The notes beneath the pieces were generated by a model. The model was given only the letters and a program-made list of their open reading frames with translations, did not search any database and was not told the DNA's origin. Shown piece after piece: positions 40,714 to 53,684 of a stretch of 64,000 nt of DNA. Positions within the stretch are counted from its first letter, which is position 1; the number at the start of each line of letters is the position of its first letter. Source of the DNA: an uncultured Candidatus Saccharibacteria bacterium (GTDB lineage: Bacteria; Patescibacteriota; Saccharimonadia; Saccharimonadales; JBBQAJ01); assembly GCA_964593805.1 (NCBI GenBank), contig CAZQHP010000001.1, positions 517,283 through 581,282 of the forward strand. Direction: 5' to 3'. The translations under genes and the position numbers were made by a program.

Positions 40714-41124
40714 CTAATACTGGTCAAACCGCGTGTGCCGGCGGCGCCAAGTTAGAATCGCCCACAAAATTGCCAGCGAAATCAAAAGTATAGAAAAACC
40801 AATAGCGCCGATTTTCCAAAATGACAAGGTTTTGGCCGAATCGGGCGCCACGGAGCTGGCTGGCGTGCTTGACTGATCTGTTTGTGAGGGATCACTGGAA
40901 GTAGATGGTTCATCAATCACTGGGGTAGCGGGTGCTGCGGTATCTCCAGAAGCGCTGCTGCCCGCACCGGCGGGGGATTGGGTGCAGTTGTTATTGTATG
41001 TGCCAGCACCATACGTGCCGCAGCCGTAAGTAGCGGCAAAAGCCGGGCTGGCGATTGCTAGGACAAATAAAACTGACGCTAAGCTAACTTTTATAATCTG
41101 TTTTATTTGCCTAAACGTAGACAT
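40714..41124 (-). CDS. Hypothetical surface protein with a signal peptide and a C-terminal TM anchor plus basic tail
   Basis: The signal peptide ends at AFA. A Ser/Pro/Thr-rich linker follows. The C-terminus is IGAIGFSILLISLAILWAILTWRRRH. Confidence 0.55.
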   Translation of the reverse strand: MSTFRQIKQIIKVSLASVLFVLAIASPAFAATYGCGTYGAGTYNNNCTQSPAGAGSSASGDTAAPATPVIDEPSTSSDPSQTDQSSTPASSVAPDSAKTLSFWKIGAIGFSILLISLAILWAILTWRRRHTRFDQY

Positions 41125-42533: not shown

Positions 42534-43010
42534 CTACTCTAAAATAGAACGCTCGGCGGCTGGAATTTGATCCAGCAGAGCTGTGATCGGCTTCTTAGTG
42601 CGAGGATCTATCAAGTCTTGGCATAGGTCGCAGAGGGGACGCAGCACAAAATCACGCTCGGCAAAACGGGGGTGGGGAAGTGTCAAGTCCGGTTTCTCCG
42701 CCACAATATCATCGTAGAATATAATGTCTATGTCTATTTCGCGCGGACCCCAGCGAAAGCGCTTTATCCTGCCCAATTCTAGCTCCACTTTTTTGACAAA
42801 CTTCAACAATTCCTTGGGAGCGAGCTCTGTCTGTCCGCAAACCACCGTATTCAAAAAATCCGCCTGATTGGTGTGACCCACGGCTTTGGTGGTATACAGA
42901 GGCGCACTCACGGCGCAGTCCAGGACTTTTTGCAGTTCTTCCTGCGCCGCGGTGACATGCCCAAGGGTATTGCCGACATTTGAACCCAACGCCAGATATA
43001 CAACAGCCAT
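42534..43010 (-). CDS. folK: 2-amino-4-hydroxy-6-hydroxymethyldihydropteridine diphosphokinase (HPPK)
   Basis: Contains VYLALGSNVGN and RWGPREIDIDII, both characteristic of HPPK. Confidence 0.85.
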   Translation of the reverse strand: MAVVYLALGSNVGNTLGHVTAAQEELQKVLDCAVSAPLYTTKAVGHTNQADFLNTVVCGQTELAPKELLKFVKKVELELGRIKRFRWGPREIDIDIIFYDDIVAEKPDLTLPHPRFAERDFVLRPLCDLCQDLIDPRTKKPITALLDQIPAAERSILE

Positions 43011-43076
43011 AAATTGATAGTAGCACAATCCTGTTTTGACTGCGACAGATTGATGCGCCTATACTTAGAACGTATC

Positions 43077-43670
43077 ATGAAAAGCATACCTTGGCCCTCG
43101 GACAAACTACTAAAACGAGTAAACCACGCACTCCTGGCCAGCATTATTTTGACCAATGGTTATGTCCTGCTGATGCCTTTGTTGCCAAAGGTGAATTACG
43201 AACTCAAACAGCGTATTACAAAGCCCGTAAAAGTCAATCCGGCGGATTCCAACAGCGTAGGTAGCATTGACCGGTCGCGCGACCACCTGATATTGCCAAC
43301 CATGCAGCTGGATGAGCCGGTTTATTTTGGCACCAATGCCTCGCTAGTCCACAGGGGCATCTGGCAGCGCCCACAGACAAATACGCCAGACAAAGGAGGC
43401 AATACCGTGCTGGTAGGCCACCGCTTTACCTACGCCGGAGCGGCGGTGTTTTATAACCTGGACAAACTAAAGACTGGCGACGACGTCTACTTTGCGTACA
43501 ACCAAAAAATTTATCATTACAAAGTAACCAGCTCTGCCATAGTGCCGCCGACGGCTGTGGAAGTAGAAGCACCTAGCCATGAAACCAAACTCACGCTCTA
43601 CACCTGCGCGCCGCTTTTAACTGCCAAAGACCGTTTGGTATATGTAGCCGAACTAAAGGAAATCTTATGA
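43077..43670 (+). CDS. Sortase family transpeptidase
   Basis: It has an N-terminal TM anchor, the catalytic His context VLVGHRF, and the TLxTC motif (LTLYTCAP). The promoter is TTGACT-18-TATACT upstream of the ATG at 43077. Confidence 0.8.
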   Translation: MKSIPWPSDKLLKRVNHALLASIILTNGYVLLMPLLPKVNYELKQRITKPVKVNPADSNSVGSIDRSRDHLILPTMQLDEPVYFGTNASLVHRGIWQRPQTNTPDKGGNTVLVGHRFTYAGAAVFYNLDKLKTGDDVYFAYNQKIYHYKVTSSAIVPPTAVEVEAPSHETKLTLYTCAPLLTAKDRLVYVAELKEIL

Positions 43671-43777
43671 GTGAAAGAAAGCGGTTTGTAGTCTTACTGG
43701 TATTAGCGGCGGCGAGCGTCGCGCTGTTGCTATACGTGCGCCATAGCGTTGGCGCGAATTTTACGAACCAGTTTTAG
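43667..43777 (+). CDS. Possible 36-aa membrane peptide coupled to the sortase gene
   Basis: It shares an ATGA overlap with the sortase stop. The translation is MSERKRFVVLLVLAAASVALLLYVRHSVGANFTNQF. This is speculative. Confidence 0.25.
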   Translation: MSERKRFVVLLVLAAASVALLLYVRHSVGANFTNQF

Positions 43778-44448
43778 TTCTGGTTAGCGCGCCTAACAAC
43801 CAGGTAGTAGTAGCCTGCCGCTAACAGTGCTGCCAGGCCGCCGGCGTACCACCAATTGCTGGTTTTTGAGCCGTCATCGGTTTTTTTGGTTTCCGCGCCC
43901 AGGACATCCTTCTTGTCTTTGTCAGTGCTAGCGGCTTGGTCGTCCACTACGCCATCACCGTTAGTATCGCCAGCCACAGCGCCAGCAGTTTGGCCGCCCG
44001 TAGCCGTGCCAGCTGTACCGGCTCCTTGGCCGCCAGCACCAGTGTTGGTAAACACCGTCGTAACGGTTGGCTGTGGTGCATTAGTAATCTGGACGCTTAC
44101 CGTTTTGCTGGGTTTTGTGCTTTCACCGTCCCCATGGTTTGTGGATTGGACGTAGTAGCTATATGTTCCGGTTGCCGGCAGGGAGATACTGAATACCCCT
44201 GAGTTGCCGTTGTTGTGAGTAACTTCTTGCGTTCCTTTTGAGAGGCTGTTTTCAAATAACTCTACTTTGAAATCGTCTTCTGGGATTGTAGAAGTCACGC
44301 CGTAAGCAATGTTTAGGGTTCGGTTTGAGGTAGCCGCTGGCTCAGATATATCAACATTTACATATCGTTGCAAAACCGCGTAAGCGGGAACAGTAAGTAC
44401 TACAAGACTTACTAGAGTAATGATTGCCGTGGTAATTAGACGCTTCAT
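43774..44448 (-). CDS. Secreted Ig/FN3-like protein with a Gly/Thr/Ala linker and a C-terminal TM anchor, coupled to the giant adhesin
   Basis: The ATG at 44448 overlaps the adhesin stop as ATGA, with AGGAGG upstream. The signal peptide is MKRLITTAIITLVSLVVLTVPAYA, and the C-terminus is GGLAALLAAGYYYLVVRRANQN. Confidence 0.65.
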   Translation of the reverse strand: MKRLITTAIITLVSLVVLTVPAYAVLQRYVNVDISEPAATSNRTLNIAYGVTSTIPEDDFKVELFENSLSKGTQEVTHNNGNSGVFSISLPATGTYSYYVQSTNHGDGESTKPSKTVSVQITNAPQPTVTTVFTNTGAGGQGAGTAGTATGGQTAGAVAGDTNGDGVVDDQAASTDKDKKDVLGAETKKTDDGSKTSNWWYAGGLAALLAAGYYYLVVRRANQN

Positions 44449-47400
44449 TTTGCACCTCCTTTCACGGGGTTGCGGCGCTTGGCAGTGGCGACTCCTAGCA
44501 CCATGAGAATCATGGCAGTAATCGCATAACCTAGGGCTATTGGCGAACCGGTGTTTACCAGTACTGTGGTAGAAGCGCCCAGAACTTGGGGCGATTTTAC
44601 GGTTACTTGCGTGGCAACGAACGGATTGTCCGCAAAGTGTACGTTGCTGAGTACGACTTCTTCGTCTGGGCAACCTTCGTATGGCGGCAGAGCACAGCCT
44701 TGGGCAAAGGCAACGTCTGGGTAAGTGCCATCACTGACGCTTGCGGCAATCTTGGCCAGGTAGGTCAGCGTTACGACTTCACCAGGAAGCATATCTCCCA
44801 AAATCCAAGTACCAGGCGAACTATAGGTTGGTTCGGTGGTAATGCTAGCGGCTTTCAGGTCGCCGCGGAAGTTGGATACGGCCGTCCAGCTGCCAGGTAC
44901 GTAGTTGAAACCGGCTGGCGGCAGGTCGGTAACGGTGGCGTCAAACAGCGCGCCACTCTGTTCGCTCAGGCTGGCAACCAACGTGTAGGTAACCGTGTCG
45001 CCAACAGTAGTCGGGTTAGGCCGGTTGTTGCTCTTGGTCAGGGTAAGCTCAACGTCATGGTAGTTGCCCACAAAGCACTCCACGGTTTCGCCCGGCTCAG
45101 CGTACACATAGTACTCGTCTTCCACTAGTATTCCGCGCTCATCGCCATTGCAGTGAATGTTTGACAAGTGCCAGCCGTCTTGCGGTGTTTCGCTCAGCTC
45201 GTGGCCTATGCCCGGCTTAATGTCCGTGAAGGTGGTTATACCGTCCTCACCAGTTGTTTGAGTCTGGTCGTAGTCGTACTCTTGGCAGGAGTTTTCTGAT
45301 ATGACTTCGATCAGGAACTCTAGAAAATCAACTTGTTCGCAGTTCTGGTGGCCGTTCAGGTTGAACTCCCAGCCAGGCAAGGGTGGTTCTGGCAGCGCAG
45401 TTTCACCTGGGTCATACTGGCCATTGCGGTTGAAGTCGTTGTATTTGGTAACTATTACAGTAGCGCGCTCGGTATTGGTGATTACACAAGTTACATTAGC
45501 GCCCTCACTCATACGGATTTGATTGTTTAGGCCATCGTCACCGTGGGAGAATACGCCGGCAGAACTAGTACATTCCCATTCACTTGCATCAAATGTACCG
45601 TCAGAGTTGTTCACTTCGCTTAAGGTGTACGTCATATGGGACACAGCTTCTTCTTCATCCACGCCGTCTTCGCCGTTACCGCTAATAGAATCACCGGTTG
45701 TTGGGGTAGCTGTCAGAGTCCAGTCAGATGCCTGGTGAGCGGGATTGACACTGTCGACTTCTTTTTTAAGTGTCAGAACGGGAGCAATGTCATCGTTGGT
45801 GATGGTGCAGGTTTTGGTTTCGCCGATGGCAATGGTGCCACTACAATCGGAGCTAAGTGACTTGGTGTAACCGTCGTCAGCTAATTCATCCACGGCGTAG
45901 CTGCCTTCGTTTAGAAGCACGGTTGTGCCGGGAGATTCTTCACCAGGGAAGTCTTTTACAACTTGAGAATTGCCGCCTACCGTCATGGTAAAGTCATCGG
46001 CATTTTTTTCACCGCCGTTGTCGTTTATGACGTGTTTGATGACAATGAGTTTTGGCTGGATGGCCGTGTTGGTGATGGTACAGGTATATGACCCGCCCAA
46101 ATTTAGCACAATGCTGATGATGTCATCGTCCAGGGTGCAGTCGCCGTCTATGCCGGTAAATTCGTAGCCGGTTTGCTGAGTTTCGCTAATCGTGTAGCTG
46201 CCAGCGTCAAACTGCGTGGTTGAAACGCCGCTGGTTACGGAAGTGCTATCTACAAACAGAGGGAAGGCCGAAGCCAGTAGCGGGTTGCCGAACGGATTTA
46301 GCACTAGCTTTGTAACTGTCAAAGTTGGCGCAATATCAGTATTAGTGATAGTACAAACTGTGGTTTGACCGTTAGTAAGCGCAATCTGGCTGTTTGTGAC
46401 AGTAACGTTGTTTGTGCAAGTCCAGAGACTAGCAGAATAGCCTTCTGGACCGGTGCTTTCACTTAGCGTGTAGGTACCGGCCGAAAAGTCTGAACCGCTG
46501 ACTACGTCCGTATCACCGGTTGCACCAGCGCCAGAAAGAGGCGTTGGGCCAGTGGCGGTTAGCGTCCAGTCGCTTTCTGCTGCGTCGCCGCCATGCGTGT
46601 TGCTGACAAGCTTGTTCAGAGTCAGGCTGGGGGCTTGGTCGTCGTTGGTGATGGTACAAGTGGCAGATTCGCCTAAACCAAGCATGACAGTATCACTATC
46701 ATCCTGAGTACCGCCTTCGCAGTCCCAATCACTGGCCGTGTAGCCGGCAGTGCCGCCAGATTCAGACAGGTCGTAAGTGCCAGCGTCAAAGGAAGCGCCA
46801 TTGGAAACCGAAGGACCGGCACCGCTAAAGCCGGTTGGGCCAGTGGCGGTTAGCGTCCAAGCAGATGCGTCCGCTGTGCCACCGTTATCGTTAACTACCT
46901 CTTTTACCAAAGTAAGAGAAGGGGCATCGTCGTCATTGGTAATGGTACAAGTAGTGGACTGACCGTTAGTTAGAGTTATCTGGTTGTTGGTGACCGTTAC
47001 TTGGTTATCACAACCCCAGGTGCCTTCGGTGTAATCACTGGGGCCGGATTCATCAAGTGTGTATGTGTCAGCTTTGAAGTCAGAACCAGAGGTTGCTCCG
47101 CCGGCCCCGCTCAGGTTAGTCGGCGACTGTGAGCCGCCGGTAGCTGTCAGCGTCCATTCGCTGGCAACACGCTGGCCGCCGTTATCGTTGGTAACTGTCT
47201 TAACTAATGTAAGTGATGGAGCATCGTCATCGTTAGTGATGGTGCAAGTCTTGGTTTCGCCCAGGGCTACAGTTACGGTTGCGTCCTCGGCACAATCGCC
47301 GCCCCAGGCTCCAGCCGTATAGCCGGGTAGGCTGGCTTCACCTGCAGTGTGAGTACCAGGGTTAACCGGGTAGGCTACTTCGTCTAGTACGGCGTTGCTA

Positions 47401-49628
47401 TCAACAGTCAGGCTGAAGTCGTCGGCAACGGCTGAACCGCCGTTATCGTTTACGACTGTTTTGTCTACAATTATGTAGGCTTGCTGGTCGTCGTTGGTGA
47501 TGGTGCAGATTACAACTTCACCCAAACTTAGCGTGAGATCGCTGCCCACTAGAGTGCCGCCGTCACAGCTCCAAGTGCTAGGAGTGTACCCGTCTGGGCC
47601 AAGTTCGCTCAAGGTGTAGGTAAGTCCTGCCGTTGCCTCAGCAGTACCGGTCAGGGCAGTTTCCCCGCCATCGCTGCTAGTACCTTGTTCGTCAATTATC
47701 GGGGTGTCGCTGCCGCTTTGCGCGGTTAGAGTCCACTCATCGGCCAAAAATGTACCGCCATCGTCGTTTATAACCTGCTTCATCAGTTGCAGAACTGGCG
47801 CAATATCAGTATTAGTAATGGTACAAACGGTGGTTTGGCCATTGGCTAGAGTAATCTGGGCGTTTGTGACAGTAACGTTGTTTGTGCAAGTCCAGAGACT
47901 AGCAGAATAGCCTTCTGGACCGGTGCTTTCACTTAGCGTGTAGGTACCGGCCGAAAAGTCTGAACCGCTGACTACGTCCGTATCACCGGTTGCACCAGCG
48001 CCAGAAAGAGGCGTTGGGCCAGTGGCGGTTAGCGTCCAGTCGCTTTCTGCTGCGTCGCCGCCATGCGTGTTGCTGACAAGCTTGTTCAGAGTCAGGCTGG
48101 GGGCTTGGTCGTCGTTGGTGATGGTGCAGTATTTGTGTTCCCCGATGGCAATACTGCCTGAACAGTTAGCGCCAAGCGTCTTGGCATAGCCATCAACAGC
48201 GTCTTCATCAACCGAATAGCTCCCAGCATCTAAAGTAATGGTTGTTCCGGATTCATCGCCGGGGAAGGAACTGTCGCTTGGGTTTGTTGCCGTAACGTTC
48301 ATAGTGAAATCACCTGCCGCGGCGCCACCGCCGTTATCGGTAACAACATGCTTGGTTACGGTCAGCTGGGGAGCAATGTCATCGTTGGTGATGGTGCAAG
48401 TTATATTCTGTCCGTTGGCAAGCGTGACATTTCCGCCAAGCTGGGCAGGACAACCAGTACCAGTGATATTTACAAAACTGTAGCCAGTTAGACCAGCTTC
48501 ATTGATAGCGTACGAACCCGGTGCGAGCGTCAAAGTTTGTCCGGACGTTACAGACGTACCGCCGGTAGTCAGTCCAAAATCATTTGCGCCGGCCGTGCCA
48601 CCGTTGTTGTTTACAACGCTTTTTATGAGGGTAATAGTGCCTGTTTGTCTGGTGTTTGTGATCGTACAGACAACGTCCGCGTCTTCTGCCAGTGTGAAGC
48701 TAAGTTGCCTGGAAGTTGTGCCAGTCGGCGAAGCACTGCCTATAATTGAACCTGTACCGTTCAAATCTCGGCACACAATCGTGGTGTCATAACTTGAAAG
48801 CGCCGTGCTTGTGCCAGCTGTCTCTTTCACAATTACGGTGCCTTTTTTAACTACACGCTCGCCAGTAGTTCCACCGTCACCTTGGTTATTAACGGTAATG
48901 GTATCACTTGCTTCTGGGCCATCAATTATTAAATTAAAGAGTCCCGTATCGGAATTGGGGACTATGTCTTTGATAAGTTCTACTTTGCCAAAATCTTCAC
49001 GGGCAATCACACAATCTGAAGGGTCAGAGTTTGGCTGAGCCGATGGGAACGAACATACGTCAATAAGTTTAGCTGCTGCACCGCCAACAGTTGAAAGTTG
49101 AATAGTACAAGCACCTTGAGTATCTACTGGCGAACCATTCCCGGTAGGAAATGGGTCGGTACTTTGCTGGCTAACTGAACAGCTGGTTGTGCCGCTTGAA
49201 ATAACTGCCGCGGTAGAGGTACAGCGGTCAATTTTGGCATCTCCACAAGAATAAGTAGTCAGGGTTTGCAAAGTAGCTGGAGTATTTTCTGTAGTAACAC
49301 AGACCGCGTAATTGATATTGCCGTCTCCGTCCGTATCAAAAAGATTACATGCGTCCAAAGTATTCGCGCCGCTAGTTCCCAGATCGTCCCAGTTCCAGGT
49401 GGTCGCCACGGTAGTTGGCACTCCCGCGTAGTCAACACATAGTTTGGTCAGGTCTTTTTGGCCGGGTTCGTCATTGGCACCAGCAGTATCAGATACACAA
49501 ATTGGAGCGGCGGCGGCTTTTTGTAGTGATAAAAAAGGGCCAGATGCGGTGGCAACCTGGCCTGTGGCGATAACTAATATAAGAAACAAGCTTCTAAGTT
49601 TGTTTATAAATCCGCGAAACCTTTTCAT
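44445..49628 (-). CDS. Giant cell-surface adhesin-like protein (1727 aa) with 12 tandem Ig-like repeats, a DUF11-like domain and an LVNTG sorting signal
   Basis: A signal peptide is present. There are twelve ~100-110-aa repeats, each ending in C(T/V)ITN(D/T), with SpaA/Cna-B-like G.Y.L.E....GY cores. A C-terminal DUF11-like region (VGDTVTYTLV...VTDLPPAGFNYV) follows. The protein ends with LVNTG, a TM segment and KRRN. Confidence 0.9.
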   Translation of the reverse strand: MKRFRGFINKLRSLFLILVIATGQVATASGPFLSLQKAAAAPICVSDTAGANDEPGQKDLTKLCVDYAGVPTTVATTWNWDDLGTSGANTLDACNLFDTDGDGNINYAVCVTTENTPATLQTLTTYSCGDAKIDRCTSTAAVISSGTTSCSVSQQSTDPFPTGNGSPVDTQGACTIQLSTVGGAAAKLIDVCSFPSAQPNSDPSDCVIAREDFGKVELIKDIVPNSDTGLFNLIIDGPEASDTITVNNQGDGGTTGERVVKKGTVIVKETAGTSTALSSYDTTIVCRDLNGTGSIIGSASPTGTTSRQLSFTLAEDADVVCTITNTRQTGTITLIKSVVNNNGGTAGANDFGLTTGGTSVTSGQTLTLAPGSYAINEAGLTGYSFVNITGTGCPAQLGGNVTLANGQNITCTITNDDIAPQLTVTKHVVTDNGGGAAAGDFTMNVTATNPSDSSFPGDESGTTITLDAGSYSVDEDAVDGYAKTLGANCSGSIAIGEHKYCTITNDDQAPSLTLNKLVSNTHGGDAAESDWTLTATGPTPLSGAGATGDTDVVSGSDFSAGTYTLSESTGPEGYSASLWTCTNNVTVTNAQITLANGQTTVCTITNTDIAPVLQLMKQVINDDGGTFLADEWTLTAQSGSDTPIIDEQGTSSDGGETALTGTAEATAGLTYTLSELGPDGYTPSTWSCDGGTLVGSDLTLSLGEVVICTITNDDQQAYIIVDKTVVNDNGGSAVADDFSLTVDSNAVLDEVAYPVNPGTHTAGEASLPGYTAGAWGGDCAEDATVTVALGETKTCTITNDDDAPSLTLVKTVTNDNGGQRVASEWTLTATGGSQSPTNLSGAGGATSGSDFKADTYTLDESGPSDYTEGTWGCDNQVTVTNNQITLTNGQSTTCTITNDDDAPSLTLVKEVVNDNGGTADASAWTLTATGPTGFSGAGPSVSNGASFDAGTYDLSESGGTAGYTASDWDCEGGTQDDSDTVMLGLGESATCTITNDDQAPSLTLNKLVSNTHGGDAAESDWTLTATGPTPLSGAGATGDTDVVSGSDFSAGTYTLSESTGPEGYSASLWTCTNNVTVTNSQIALTNGQTTVCTITNTDIAPTLTVTKLVLNPFGNPLLASAFPLFVDSTSVTSGVSTTQFDAGSYTISETQQTGYEFTGIDGDCTLDDDIISIVLNLGGSYTCTITNTAIQPKLIVIKHVINDNGGEKNADDFTMTVGGNSQVVKDFPGEESPGTTVLLNEGSYAVDELADDGYTKSLSSDCSGTIAIGETKTCTITNDDIAPVLTLKKEVDSVNPAHQASDWTLTATPTTGDSISGNGEDGVDEEEAVSHMTYTLSEVNNSDGTFDASEWECTSSAGVFSHGDDGLNNQIRMSEGANVTCVITNTERATVIVTKYNDFNRNGQYDPGETALPEPPLPGWEFNLNGHQNCEQVDFLEFLIEVISENSCQEYDYDQTQTTGEDGITTFTDIKPGIGHELSETPQDGWHLSNIHCNGDERGILVEDEYYVYAEPGETVECFVGNYHDVELTLTKSNNRPNPTTVGDTVTYTLVASLSEQSGALFDATVTDLPPAGFNYVPGSWTAVSNFRGDLKAASITTEPTYSSPGTWILGDMLPGEVVTLTYLAKIAASVSDGTYPDVAFAQGCALPPYEGCPDEEVVLSNVHFADNPFVATQVTVKSPQVLGASTTVLVNTGSPIALGYAITAMILMVLGVATAKRRNPVKGGAK
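44448..44561 (-). other. Cell-wall sorting signal of the giant protein (LVNTG, hydrophobic segment, basic tail)
   Basis: The LVNTG codons lie at 44547-44561 (ctggtaaacaccggt on the minus strand). They are followed by SPIALGYAITAMILMVLGVATA and KRRNPVKGGAK. Confidence 0.7.
46326..46655 (-). repeat. Intragenic 330-bp direct repeat, copy 1
   Basis: It aligns to 47796-48125 (offset 1470 bp, or 490 codons). The segment 46392-46655 is 100% identical to 47862-48125 (264 bp). Confidence 0.95.
47796..48125 (-). repeat. Intragenic 330-bp direct repeat, copy 2
   Basis: See 46326-46655. Confidence 0.95.
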
Positions 49629-49832
49629 ACCAACGCTCCTTGTTGTTTATGGAAATTGGTTGGGTTCGCTACTCCTAGGCTCCACACTGTTCAAGCGACA
49701 CTAATACAAACAGTGTTTCATCGCCCCCCAATGTCCCCTAAGCCGTTTTTAAGCTCTTTGTTCTGAAAAGCATTATCACCCTGTTTTAATAAAAATGCAA
49801 GACCATAATACCAATTTAATGACAAAAACCAC

Positions 49833-49853
49833 CCCGGAGGATGGCTTTTGCTG
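49833..49853 (-). terminator. Intrinsic terminator after the 49869-50402 gene (minus strand)
   Basis: On the minus strand, ccatcc-tccg-ggggtgg forms a hairpin followed by TTTTT. Confidence 0.55.
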
Positions 49854-49868
49854 TTTACGAACTGTGTT

Positions 49869-50402
49869 TTAAACTGTTGGTGTTGTTGGTGTAGCTGTTT
49901 TGCCGCCAAATTTTTCCCGGACTTGGAAAAGCAAGTAAAAGGCTATGGCAGAGCCGATTAGGCTGCCAACAAAACTGCCGACGCCGCGGTTAAACGTAAA
50001 GATCTGAATCACGCCGTAGCCTAGGTTGATCAGTGACGCCAAGAACAACAAATCCCAGCCGCTGCGCAGCCGTTTTTGCAGCTTTGGAAACGCCATCAGC
50101 AAAATCACCGCGTCTACCGCCAGCAGGGCAATGCCCAAGTAGATTACTGTCTTGTCAAACCCAGACGGGCCAGCCGCGTACCCGGCGTAATAAACGGACA
50201 ACGAATTGGCCACGTCAGTCACGCGGTCTGCCCAATTAGCTAGATTCCACAAAGCAAGCGCCGCGAACAGTTGCAGCACGCCGCCAATCAGCGCCAGCCA
50301 TGGCCAAACTTTTGCCAAGCCTTCTTTGGTGCTGTCTGGCAACGACGGCAAATCTTTAAAAACTTTTTCCAGACTTGTTTCTGCCTTTTGTAATGCCCCC
50401 AT
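49869..50402 (-). CDS. Hypothetical integral membrane protein
   Basis: The ATG at 50402 (MGALQKAETS) was chosen as the start. The protein has 4 TM segments. Confidence 0.55.
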   Translation of the reverse strand: MGALQKAETSLEKVFKDLPSLPDSTKEGLAKVWPWLALIGGVLQLFAALALWNLANWADRVTDVANSLSVYYAGYAAGPSGFDKTVIYLGIALLAVDAVILLMAFPKLQKRLRSGWDLLFLASLINLGYGVIQIFTFNRGVGSFVGSLIGSAIAFYLLFQVREKFGGKTATPTTPTV

Positions 50403-50474
50403 ACGAACTCCTTTGGTTAATAGTTTAAGAATAAACCCCCGACACCCCGAACGCAAGCAAGGTACAATGTACCT

Positions 50475-53400
50475 GTGCAAAACTTTGAGACTGAGTACAG
50501 CAAACTGAACGATCAACAGAAACTAGCGGTCGATGAAATTGACGGGCCGGTACTGGTAGTGGCCGGCCCCGGCACTGGCAAAACTCAGCTGCTCAGCGCC
50601 CGCGTGGCCAACATCTTGAAACGCACCGACACCGACCCATCGAGCATCCTCTGCCTGACTTTCACCAACAAAGCCGCGCTCAACATGCGCCAGCGCCTGA
50701 ACAAACTCATCGGGCCGGATAGCCGATTCGTGGTGGTCAAGACGTTTCACAGCTTTGCGGCCGAGCTGATGAACAATTATCCGGACTATTTCTGGAACGG
50801 TGCTAGTTTGAGCGTAGCGCCAGAAGCCGTTCAGCTGGAAATAATTCAGAACATCCTGGCCGGCCTGCCGCTGGATAACCCGCTTAGCAGTACCTTTGCC
50901 GGCGCTTTCACGCAGCTGCCTGACGTCAAACAGGCCCTGAAACTCGCCAAAGAAGCCGGCCTGACTCCAGACGACCTGCGCACTGCCATAAAACACAATC
51001 TAGACTACCTGGACAAACTAGAACCAACCATGGTTGATTTGCTGTCGCCGCCGTTAAGCGGCAAACAACTTCCAGTTCTGGAAGCCAAAATCTCCAAGCT
51101 GCCGCTGCACAAAACTCTCCCCGCCAGGCTTATCCTGCCTCTAAACCAAGTTATCGCTGAGAGCCTACGGCTCGCCATAGAGCAAGACGAGCCAACTGGC
51201 AAAACCACCAGCACTGGCAAATGGAAAAAACGCTGGATTCAAACTGTCGACGGCCAAAAGGGCATGTTTGACGAACGCCGGCGCAATCAGTGGTGGCTGG
51301 CCGTTGCCGACGTGTATGAAAACTACCGAGACCAGCTGCACCAGCGCGGTTTCTATGACTATGCAGACATGATGATAGAAGTTATCGAGCAGCTATCCCA
51401 AAACGCGGACATGCGCGCCGATGTCCAGGAAAGGTTCTTGTACGTGCTGATAGACGAATTTCAGGACACCAATGCCGCCCAACTGCGGCTGGCTCATCTG
51501 GTTGCCGATCATTACACCGCCAACAACCGGCCGAACCTGATGACAGTTGGCGATGACGATCAGTCCATCTTTGCCTTTAACGGCGCCGAGCTAAACAACA
51601 TGCTCGAGTTTCGGCGCAGCTACCCTGACACCAAACTGATAGTGCTGCAGAAAAACTACCGCTCGTCACAAAAAGTCCTGGACAGCGCTACAGACATTAT
51701 CACTCAGGCCGAAGACCGCCTGGTAAACCGTGAACCAGACATTACCAAGCAGCTGTCGGCCGAAAACGAGCCTAAATCCAAAAGCGTGATTCAGCATTTG
51801 TCCTACCCGACCCGCCAGCACCAGCAGCTAAACGTCGCGCGGCGAGTTAAAGAGCTATGGGAAAACGGCAACGACAGCGTAGCGGTGCTAGCCCGTACCC
51901 ACGATAGTTTGCGGCAGCTGGCCGGCATATTGTCTGCTGAACAGGTGGACATCAGCTACGAGCGGCGCAGCAACGTACTGGAACATTCAGCCGTGTTAGA
52001 CGTCTACACCATGGCAGCGGCTGCTCTAGCCATAAGCAGCGGCGACAAAACCCAAACCAACCTGCTACTAGCCAAACTGCTGCGTCACCCCATGTGGGAC
52101 ATCAGCCCAAAGGCGCTTTGGAAACTGGCAACCGACAACTACAGCTCGCCGGACTGGCTGGGCAGCCTGCATGAAAGTGCCGACTCCAAACTGAGTAACA
52201 TTGCTTTGTGGCTTGGCTGGCTGGGGCGCAGCAGCGCCGAACAACCGCTCGGGATCACCCTGGAGTACTTGCTGGGACTTAGAGAAGGCGAATACCTGGA
52301 AAGCCCTTTCCGGAATTATCATCTCTCTCAGCGCACCCTGACCGCTGAATACCTGGAGTGTTTGTCGGCAGTCGAACAGCTGCGCAACCTGGCTCAGGAG
52401 TTTTCGACTCAGCCCAACCCTACGCTGGAAGACTTTGTACGCTTTATAGAGCTCAACCACCGCACCGGGCAGGTGATAGCCGACGAATCGTGGTTTAACA
52501 GCGGCGAAAAAGCCGTCGAGCTGCTGACTATATATAAAGCCAAGGGTCTGGAGTTTGATCACGTCTTTGTGATTGACGCCATAGAGGATATGTGGAAACC
52601 GCGAACAGCTCGGCGTAAGTCTCCGGCCAACCTGCGGTTAGAGTCCTACGGCGAAAAATATGACGACTACGTCCGACTGTTGTACGTGGCGGCGTCTCGT
52701 GCCAAAAGCACTCTGACAGTCAGCAGTTACCGTAGTAGCGATAACGGCACGGACTTGCTGCCTTCGCCACTGCTTTCTGCCTTGCCGCTGAAAACCATAG
52801 ATGAACCGGCTGAACAGCCGCAAGAAGTCCTGGAGGCAGATTTGCGCTGGCCACGCCTGCACATAACGGATGAAAAAGCGCTGCTGGCCGGCCGCATGGA
52901 GGACTTTTACCTCAGCCCCACCAGTTTGACGGACTTTCTGGACGTTACCCAAGCCGGACCGGCGGTGTTTATGGAACGGCATTTACTGCGACTGCCCCGC
53001 GCTAGCTCGCCATCCGGCGGTTATGGCACCGCCATCCACGCCGCCCTAGAAACCGCCCTGCGGCTTGTCAACACCGTAAAGCTAAACCTAGACACCGTGT
53101 TAGACAGGTTTGAGACCAGCCTAACCGAGCAGCGGCTAGCACCAGCCGACTTTGAACTGTACAAAAACAAAGGCCGCGGACTACTGACTGAACTTATCCG
53201 CGGCAAACAGCTGATACTGCCCAAAGGCAGCCTGGCCGAACAGTCTATAAATGACGTGCTGATTGGCGAAGCCAGACTAGGCGGCAAACTGGACCGTCTG
53301 GACTTGCCGGACAAAAACACGCTCATCATCTCTGATTACAAAACCGGCAAAGCCCTGAGTAGCTTTGATACCAAAGACAAAACCAAAGAGCACAAAGCCT

Positions 53401-53684
53401 GGCGCAGCCGCTACCAGTTGCTGTTTTACTGCTTACTGGCAAGAAACAGCAGCCGCTACGGCAAAATCTCCAACGTATCTGGCAAAATCATCTACGTCGA
53501 AGCCCCGCATCCAGATGCTACGGCTCTCACGCTAGTACCAACGGAGCAGGAACTAGAGGAATTATCCCGCCTAGTCCAAGTAGTCTGGCAGCACATCGTA
53601 AACCTAGACTTCCCAGACATCTCTGCCTACACCCCCGACCTAACCGGCATCCAAGCCTTCACCACCACCATCCTCAAGAAGTAA
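50475..53684 (+). CDS. UvrD/PcrA-family SF1 helicase fused to a C-terminal PD-(D/E)XK (RecB/AddA-type) nuclease domain
   Basis: It has a GTG start, a Walker A motif (VVAGPGTGKTQ), LIDEFQDTN and YRS motifs. The C-terminal sequence GGKLDRLD...IISDYKTGK is the RecB-family nuclease signature. Confidence 0.85.
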   Translation: MQNFETEYSKLNDQQKLAVDEIDGPVLVVAGPGTGKTQLLSARVANILKRTDTDPSSILCLTFTNKAALNMRQRLNKLIGPDSRFVVVKTFHSFAAELMNNYPDYFWNGASLSVAPEAVQLEIIQNILAGLPLDNPLSSTFAGAFTQLPDVKQALKLAKEAGLTPDDLRTAIKHNLDYLDKLEPTMVDLLSPPLSGKQLPVLEAKISKLPLHKTLPARLILPLNQVIAESLRLAIEQDEPTGKTTSTGKWKKRWIQTVDGQKGMFDERRRNQWWLAVADVYENYRDQLHQRGFYDYADMMIEVIEQLSQNADMRADVQERFLYVLIDEFQDTNAAQLRLAHLVADHYTANNRPNLMTVGDDDQSIFAFNGAELNNMLEFRRSYPDTKLIVLQKNYRSSQKVLDSATDIITQAEDRLVNREPDITKQLSAENEPKSKSVIQHLSYPTRQHQQLNVARRVKELWENGNDSVAVLARTHDSLRQLAGILSAEQVDISYERRSNVLEHSAVLDVYTMAAAALAISSGDKTQTNLLLAKLLRHPMWDISPKALWKLATDNYSSPDWLGSLHESADSKLSNIALWLGWLGRSSAEQPLGITLEYLLGLREGEYLESPFRNYHLSQRTLTAEYLECLSAVEQLRNLAQEFSTQPNPTLEDFVRFIELNHRTGQVIADESWFNSGEKAVELLTIYKAKGLEFDHVFVIDAIEDMWKPRTARRKSPANLRLESYGEKYDDYVRLLYVAASRAKSTLTVSSYRSSDNGTDLLPSPLLSALPLKTIDEPAEQPQEVLEADLRWPRLHITDEKALLAGRMEDFYLSPTSLTDFLDVTQAGPAVFMERHLLRLPRASSPSGGYGTAIHAALETALRLVNTVKLNLDTVLDRFETSLTEQRLAPADFELYKNKGRGLLTELIRGKQLILPKGSLAEQSINDVLIGEARLGGKLDRLDLPDKNTLIISDYKTGKALSSFDTKDKTKEHKAWRSRYQLLFYCLLARNSSRYGKISNVSGKIIYVEAPHPDATALTLVPTEQELEELSRLVQVVWQHIVNLDFPDISAYTPDLTGIQAFTTTILKK

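Follow-up and report, generated by a model that had tools for sequence, protein, structure and literature searches.

We analyzed a 64,000-nucleotide (nt) stretch of genomic DNA from an uncultured Candidatus Saccharibacteria bacterium, henceforth referred to in its entirety as the window, and describe here a group of four genes that encode a sortase, a giant surface protein, and two small membrane proteins. Based on a listing of open reading frames (ORFs) and on our reading of the intergenic region, these genes form two coupled pairs that face each other. The first pair, on the forward strand, consists of the gene for a sortase of 197 amino acids (aa) (positions 43077-43670) and an unannotated ORF of 36 aa (MSERKRFVVLLVLAAASVALLLYVRHSVGANFTNQF; 43667-43777), which was read from the convergent intergenic region. 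The second pair, on the reverse strand, consists of the gene for a 1727-aa protein (44445-49628), which was dissected using the ORF listing, Pfam and NCBIfam matches, and its internal repeats, and the gene for a 224-aa protein (43774-44448), taken from the ORF listing, which we refer to as the partner. An initial annotation of this DNA had reported a sortase with a TLYTC active site that converges on the genes for a 1727-aa and a 224-aa protein, and all these elements are present at the positions it had given. The observations described below make it probable that these genes constitute a self-contained cell-surface unit of a Saccharibacterium made up of two convergent, translationally coupled gene pairs.

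The 197-aa protein matches the sortase models PF04203 (88.5 bits; cut-off 26.6) and TIGR01076 (81.7 bits; cut-off 39.35), its N-terminus is a transmembrane (TM) anchor, and the catalytic residues His115 (in the motif VGHR), Cys177 (in TLYTC), and Arg186 are invariant in 33 homologues. Scanning species-representative genomes for this sortase yielded 80 loci, nearly all of them from organisms named Saccharibacteria or Saccharimonadales, and the 145 homologues of the window enzyme that were collected are likewise named. We take the enzyme to be a true sortase that belongs to a clade specific to Saccharibacteria. The models for classes C, E (NF033747), and D score 71.5, 69.2, and 67.5 bits, respectively, against cut-offs of 140-165 bits (160 for classes C and E); the window enzyme, thus, falls within no curated sortase class, and all 33 aligned family members give a similar spread of scores. 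The best match among solved structures is the class C enzyme 8t28 (E value 8.5e-15), and some relatives of the window enzyme carry the NCBI label "class E sortase."

The 36-aa ORF is coupled to the sortase gene in that its start overlaps the sortase stop codon (ATGA), and its own stop codon overlaps that of the convergent partner gene. The microprotein that it encodes has a basic N-terminus and a single TM helix and ends in a short outer tail. Counts of microproteins and of gene adjacency in this study refer to 82 loci, and the scan for sorting signals described later covered 81 loci of the sortase family in addition to the window. A homologous ORF of 32-43 aa directly follows the sortase gene in 77 of the 82 loci, with the same ATGA overlap in 58, and in L083 a gene caller had called a 39-aa gene at this position. 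The 75 distinct sequences of the family have a mean identity of 35% and share one architecture, which is summarized by the consensus MsEk.RFvILL.LL.aSlaLL.yln...g..fl..l; searches against Pfam and NCBIfam returned no family, the sole hits being noise from TM composition. In Actinobacteria, the gene directly downstream of the housekeeping sortase encodes SafA, a membrane protein of 52 aa that shields this sortase from signal peptidase (PMC9282373). By position, the microprotein may be regarded as an analog of SafA, given that both are small single-TM proteins encoded immediately downstream of a sortase; however, the two differ in length (36 aa versus 52 aa), and the exoplasmic FPW and N-terminal PGP motifs of SafA are not found in the microprotein consensus.

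The 1727-aa protein is composed, in this order, of a signal peptide, a Cys-rich head, one SpaA_4 domain, 11 SpaA_2 domains, a CnaB-like domain, a DUF11/CLIPPER domain, and a sorting signal. The head (aa ~40-225; 48954-49511, reverse strand) was delimited by homologue alignment and an AlphaFold2 model and is predicted to be a β-sandwich that includes the motif GANDEPGQKDLT and a DxDxDG-type loop (DTDGDGNINYA). At an E value of 0.001 or less, 334 homologues of the head were found, including sequences from sources labelled Chloroflexota, Anaerolineae, Actinobacteria, Microbacterium, Acidobacteria, and Solirubrobacteraceae; their alignment contains 16 invariant columns, four of which are Cys, and three more Cys are nearly invariant. 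The AlphaFold2 model has a predicted local distance difference test score (pLDDT) of 88.7 and a predicted TM-score (pTM) of 0.83. No Pfam domain was assigned to the head, EF-hand hits being weak (E value 0.019), and a profile search against PDB sequences gave no match. A similarity to CBM9 was considered and set aside as too weak (TM-score ~0.3-0.36; E value 0.08).

The head is followed by a stalk (45471-48953, reverse strand) that comprises the SpaA_4 domain (aa 226-326) and the SpaA_2 domains (aa 327-1386), as defined by Pfam and repeat dissection. Pfam recognizes 11 SpaA_2 stretches (E value 3.9e-163) and one SpaA_4 domain at residues 226-327. The initial annotation had described twelve repeats of ~105 aa, each closed by C(T/V)ITN(D/T). 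This count stands, as C[TV]ITN[DT] occurs exactly 12 times in the protein, where it ends the SpaA_4 domain and each of the 11 SpaA_2 repeats; the uniform size does not, as the first unit is the SpaA_4 domain and the SpaA_2 repeats vary between 87 and 107 aa. A Lys in the first strand (L.L.K), a Glu (Y.L.E), an Asn (C.ITN), and two Cys are invariant in all 11 SpaA_2 repeats. Intramolecular isopeptide bonds have been predicted for a set of families that includes SpaA_2, and a crystal structure showing a Lys-Asn bond has led to DUF11 being given the new name CLIPPER (10.1101/2025.04.25.650565). We read the Lys, Glu, and Asn of the repeats as a CnaB-type isopeptide triad, and the invariance of these residues together with the literature on both families makes it probable that Lys-Asn isopeptide bonds and disulfides lock the stalk domains and the CLIPPER domain. 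Repeat 9 (46297-46596, reverse strand) is a near copy of repeat 4 (47767-48066), with 92% DNA identity over 300 nt and 97% protein identity at a spacing of 1470 nt, whereas the other repeats are mutually 26-66% identical; this near-identity points to a recent internal duplication or gene conversion.

Between the repeats and the C-terminus lie a CnaB/SdrD_B-like domain (aa 1387 to ~1510), which was recognized by weak SpaA, SpaA_4, and SdrD_B hits, and a DUF11/CLIPPER domain (aa ~1528-1634); together they occupy positions 44727-45470 on the reverse strand. The latter, which the initial annotation had already noted as a DUF11-like domain after the repeats, scores above the cut-off of PF01345 (27.6 bits versus 24.6) and also matches TIGR01451 at residues 1532-1583. 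A comparison of repeat number between strains, which the initial annotation had called for, was made across relatives: orthologous giants are 814 to 2060 aa long and contain 1-12 repeat closures. Therefore, stalk length varies between lineages, as is usual for fibrillar adhesins. Given its tandem stalk domains and its surface anchor, we regard the giant as a sortase-type fibrillar adhesin. It shares a signal peptide, an N-terminal head, CnaB-type stalk triads, a CLIPPER domain, and a sorting signal with Cna- and SdrD-type MSCRAMMs (microbial surface components recognizing adhesive matrix molecules), with other SpaA_2/CLIPPER proteins, and with Gardnerella Cna, and the variation in repeat number is likewise seen in fibrillar adhesins with isopeptide-locked stalks. 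It differs from these proteins in that its head has no Pfam family or solved fold, in that it belongs to an epibiotic Saccharibacterium, and in that a coupled or fused membrane partner always lies behind it.

The C-terminus of the giant is predicted to be a cell-wall sorting signal (44448-44585, reverse strand), which was read from the sequence and from orthologues. It runs PQVLGASTTV, LVNTG, SPIALGYAITAMILMVLGVATA (22 hydrophobic residues), and KRRNPVKGGAK, and contains all three parts of a tripartite signal; specifically, VLGAST (aa 1682-1687; 44568-44585) precedes the pentapeptide LVNTG (aa 1690-1694; 44547-44561), and a TM helix (aa 1695-1716; 44481-44546) leads to the basic tail. No second such signal was found within the 64-kb window. 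The initial annotation had described a non-canonical sorting signal with N in place of P (LxNTG). Orthologues bear out the signal as such, as they keep L-V-x-T-G (LVDTG, LVKTG, LVNTG) at the same distance from the TM helix, but the proposed variant was mis-registered: relative to LPXTG, V replaces P and N occupies the variable X position, and it is position 3 that varies between orthologues (LVDTG in L001, LVKTG in L002). To our reading, LVNTG has been noted in the literature once, as "non-canonical," in Gardnerella Cna (PMC12095359).

With our own script, we searched all stop-to-stop ORFs of the sortase loci and the window for C-termini in which a hydrophobic stretch and then a basic tail come after a pentapeptide. 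The C-terminal signals identified within 10 kb of the sortase family were LVNTG (at least ten), LVDTG, LVKTG, LADTG, LAATG, LANTG, and LTNTG, apart from two xPDTG exceptions (see below), and L[VAT]xTG is also borne by unrelated proteins encoded beside the same sortase family. In giants that are fused to their partner (see below), the signals are LANTG, LAHTG, LSVTG, LVDTG, LAATG, LQNTG, LVNSG, and LSETG, with P never at position 2. From these sequences, this sortase clade would use a proline-less L[VA]xTG signal that usually takes the form LVNTG and in which V is the commonest residue at position 2. We also observed that a juxtamembrane VLGA is common to the giant (VLGAST) and the partner (DVLGAE), about 15-20 residues before the C-terminal TM helix in both. 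In the partner family, VLGA is nearly invariant; it also often precedes L[VA]xTG signals in Saccharibacteria and, in short signals, merges with the pentapeptide (VVLAHTG, EVLSVTG).

Neither TIGR01167 nor PF00746, the models for LPXTG anchors, matches the giant at an E value of 0.01 or less, V being at position 2, which would also fit a giant that is merely anchored in the membrane by its C-terminus, its LVNTG being left unprocessed and the neighbouring sortase acting on other substrates. That the sortase gene is not beside the pair in 75 of the 82 loci is consistent with such an arrangement as well. A bare TM anchor, however, would not constrain these five residues, and orthologues with diverged flanks keep L-[VA]-x-T-G at a constant distance from the TM helix, a motif that recurs in unrelated neighbours of the sortase clade. 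As the tripartite architecture is also complete, we regard simple membrane anchoring as quite unlikely and favor processing of LVNTG by the sortase.

A signal without proline at position 2 is also found in class E systems, as represented by SrtE1/SrtE2 of Streptomyces and SrtA of Actinomyces oris, for which LAXTG is the substrate motif (PMC5148588). Class E systems further resemble the window in that a single membrane-anchored sortase serves wall-anchored proteins and in that a small single-TM protein such as SafA is encoded downstream. They differ in that the window enzyme reaches only 69 bits with the class E model, whose cut-off is 160, and lies just as near to classes C and D, and in that V is preferred over A in the motif. 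In class E enzymes, a tyrosine in the β3/β4 loop, Tyr229 of SrtE1, has been proposed to select Ala over Pro, and its equivalent in CpSrtD is F92 (PMC5148588). SrtE1 (5cuw) is a weak PDB match to the window enzyme (E value 8e-5), and the HMMER match begins after the β3/β4 loop; in a profile alignment to CpSrtD (4d70), which stands in here for a direct alignment of the SrtE1 loop, the position of F92 is an Arg (R98 in the window; consensus GiWRRP), and W96, two residues upstream, is nearly invariant. The window enzyme, therefore, appears class-E-like in that its signals lack proline, yet it would not be a member of class E.

The 224-aa partner contains a signal peptide, an immunoglobulin (Ig)-like β-sandwich (aa ~28-125; 44074-44367), a disordered G/A/T-rich linker (aa 135-197) that includes DVLGAE (aa 181-186; 43891-43908), a TM helix (aa 199-222; 43783-43854), and the tail RRANQN. 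Across the family, a nearly invariant (D/E)VLGAE is followed by about 15-20 polar residues, the TM helix, an aromatic YY(W)F segment, and a basic tail. We identified 31 close homologues and, in an exhaustive profile search, 239 representatives. Neither Pfam nor NCBIfam gave a hit to the partner; its AlphaFold2 model has a pLDDT of ~90 over the sandwich, and a Foldseek search of this model against PDB returned generic Ig, CARDB, and Sec63-FN3-like matches at E values of ~1e-4 that provide no functional lead. Many standalone partners are 300-350 aa long and have two stretches that match the partner profile.

The Ig-like fold of the partner, the clustering of its gene with a sortase gene, and the finding that the best PDB sequence matches of this sortase are class C enzymes raise the question of whether the locus is a sortase-assembled pilus operon, in which the giant would form the shaft or serve as an adhesin subunit and the sortase would join the partner to it as a tip or basal pilin, as the initial annotation had suggested. 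SpaA-type sortase-dependent pilus clusters do resemble the window in that a sortase is clustered with secreted proteins of Ig or CnaB fold. However, none of the ~100 partner family representatives inspected has an L-x-x-T-G before its TM helix. The internal FTNTG that had been pointed out in the partner together with its C-terminal TM helix and RR tail is indeed present, as are the helix and the tail, but the motif is not conserved, as only 3 of the 31 homologues share it and the others have FVNNG, FTNNG, or similar sequences. Moreover, the alignment of the 31 homologues contains no conserved lysine in the mature partner, the single sortase falls short of class C (71.5 bits; cut-off 160), and we noticed no YPK-type pilin motif when reading the translated giant, although no dedicated pattern search was run. 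In contrast to SpaA-type clusters, the locus thus lacks both a sortase of class C and a pilin-motif lysine, and a sorting signal is present in just one of its proteins. We consider a pilus operon very improbable and take the partner to be an Ig-like type I membrane protein, not a pilin. Pam pili (PamA/PamB) are likewise Ig-like-fold surface proteins of Saccharibacteria, but the Pam pilins are two-domain proteins of 38.7 and 55.3 kDa that are assembled by donor-strand exchange with the chaperones PamC/PamD and without a sortase. Sizes, architecture, and assembly route differ, and the partner was, on the basis of these descriptions rather than of a sequence or fold comparison, dismissed as a Pam pilin or chaperone.

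The initial annotation had proposed that the giant and the partner are translationally coupled, and this coupling is both present and conserved. The ATG of the partner (44448-44446) overlaps the TGA of the giant (44447-44445), giving ATGA at 44445-44448, and a GGAGG Shine-Dalgarno sequence (44455-44459, reverse strand) lies within the last codons of the giant (KGGAK), 6 nt before the ATG, so that the junction reads AAAGGAGGTGCAAAATGA. GGAGG precedes the ATGA in three loci, being kept in L001 and L002, and L012 has a weaker AAAGGA. In all ten partner loci examined, a SpaA_2 giant is encoded directly upstream of the partner; stop and start overlap by 4 nt in seven of these loci and are separated by a gap or overlap of 1 nt in the remaining three. 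Three of the loci with a 4-nt overlap are further independent contigs, one of which has no sortase within 10 kb. The gene order of the window, that is, a sortase gene that converges on a partner gene preceded by a giant gene, recurs in L001, L002, L012, L031, and L036, and also in L029 with a headless giant.

In at least eight cluster representatives from metagenomic relatives (P0350, P0356, P0362, P0372, P0375, P0382, P0392, and P0396), the partner is fused in frame behind the sorting signal of the giant, and in most of them, including P0372, the partner has no start codon of its own. One fusion was checked on its contig and is a single ORF of 1439 aa (L084, 339-4658). The topology of the fused proteins is self-consistent: the TM helix of the sorting signal would run from outside to inside and be followed by a basic loop, the former signal peptide, which ends in AxA, would lead back from inside to outside, and the Ig-like domain would be exposed outside ahead of the final TM helix. 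If sortase and signal peptidase cut such a fusion, the two resulting proteins would be the same as those made from the split genes, which argues for the giant and the partner being made at the same place and in equal amounts. When read through, the fused sequences also show an extra domain after the Ig-like one.

The generic fold matches of the partner would be compatible with its being an independent small surface protein that is co-expressed from the operon but otherwise unconnected to the giant, both physically and functionally. Such independence is difficult to reconcile with the ten of ten partner genes that lie directly behind a giant and start at or within 1 nt of its stop, with the in-frame fusions in which most partners lack their own start codon, and with the juxtamembrane VLGA common to both proteins, and we consider it rather unlikely.

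We propose that the two gene pairs act together as follows. The first pair would provide a membrane-anchored sortase of a lineage-specific clade and the 36-aa single-TM microprotein, and the second pair the 1727-aa fibrillar adhesin and the 224-aa Ig-like type I membrane protein. The adhesin would be exported by Sec and would remain in the membrane through its C-terminal TM helix and KRRN tail until the sortase, as the comparative evidence suggests, cuts LVNTG between T and G and joins the adhesin to the cell wall. The wall-anchored protein would then project its Cys-rich head on 12 CnaB-type domains and the CLIPPER domain. The partner would be made at a roughly 1:1 ratio with the adhesin, either by means of the Shine-Dalgarno sequence and ATGA coupling or, in some lineages, by in-frame fusion behind the sorting signal, and would stay in the membrane with its Ig-like domain on a flexible tether of ~65 residues. 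Its most likely role would be that of an accessory subunit for the base of the adhesin or for its sorting. A further-reaching possibility, which we put forward only tentatively, is that both small membrane proteins are working parts of a Saccharibacteria-specific surface-display machinery, in which the microprotein stabilizes or regulates the sortase and the partner serves as an obligate co-factor by presenting the adhesin to the sortase, by holding the base of the adhesin, or by marking a common site of shedding.

Several observations weigh against this interpretation of the locus. First, the giant/partner pair adjoins the sortase gene in only 7 of the 82 loci, showing that adjacency is not obligatory; therefore, the enzyme probably serves several substrates. 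Second, two proteins encoded near members of the sortase clade end in xPDTG signals (GAPDTG in L030, 3-1460; AKPDTG in L045, 9123-10523), which may mean that the specificity of the clade is broader or that those genomes contain a second sortase. Third, the fusions could in principle be assembly errors. Fourth, a Foldseek search of the head against PDB gave nothing significant (best E value 0.08) and, thus, no lead to a ligand. Finally, in Southlakia epibionticum, the one Saccharibacterium with transposon sequencing data, a 199-aa "class E sortase," a possible orthologue of the window enzyme, is non-essential in co-culture, and insertions in its gene confer a growth advantage. A second sortase of this organism, of 448 aa, is essential, and no SpaA_2 giant is found among the entries of its genome tables. 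SEML1_0890 and SEML1_0891, adjacent essential envelope genes of S. epibionticum, were considered as counterparts of the giant/partner pair and rejected: SEML1_0891, which lies downstream of SEML1_0890, encodes a lysozyme-like protein of 565 aa that has a 7-bladed domain.

Immediately upstream of the giant gene and in the same orientation lies a gene for a polytopic membrane protein of ~177 aa (49869-50402, reverse strand) that has no Pfam match. Homologues of ~170-177 aa are encoded at the same position in L001 (18113-18625; E value 1e-52) and L082 (4795-5307; E value 3e-46), and none was found beside the pair in the other partner loci; this protein may or may not be part of the module. Beyond the small membrane-protein gene, a gene for a UvrD-helicase/PD-(D/E)XK nuclease is kept in the window (50475-53684, forward strand) and in the two distant relatives (L001, 18927-20594; L082, 1522-4722), with no obvious functional tie to the module. 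The neighbours of the module in the window are housekeeping genes, including those for TatC, HPPK, the UvrD/PD-(D/E)XK helicase-nuclease, and a DNA methylase, and the module, therefore, forms a compact island. Promoter-like and terminator-like sites are no more common in the region 42900-50600 than in shuffled sequence. On the other side of the sortase gene, a 136-aa ORF (40714-41124, reverse strand) encodes a protein with a signal peptide, a low-complexity middle rich in S/T/P/D, and a C-terminal TM helix followed by RRRH; it has neither a sorting pentapeptide nor a Pfam match.

Saccharibacteria live attached to Actinobacteria, and the attachment structures discussed in the literature that we found are type IV pili and Pam pili. 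A literature search that combined LPXTG with Saccharibacteria terms returned papers that did not contain both. The locus described here provides a testable rule for the sortase substrates of this phylum, namely, L[VA]xTG and not LPXTG. Because TIGR01167 and PF00746 miss the terminus of the giant, annotation based on these models likely overlooks such substrates. The giant itself is a candidate host-binding adhesin with a head that has no structural precedent, and it is accompanied by two conserved, previously undescribed accessory membrane proteins, one of which is coupled to the substrate and the other to the enzyme. Saccharibacteria are now genetically manipulable, so both accessory proteins could be probed. 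Rather than overturning known sortase biology, these findings would extend a class-E-like logic to a new phylum, and the role proposed for the microprotein, if true, would extend the SafA principle beyond Actinobacteria by means of an unrelated sequence family.

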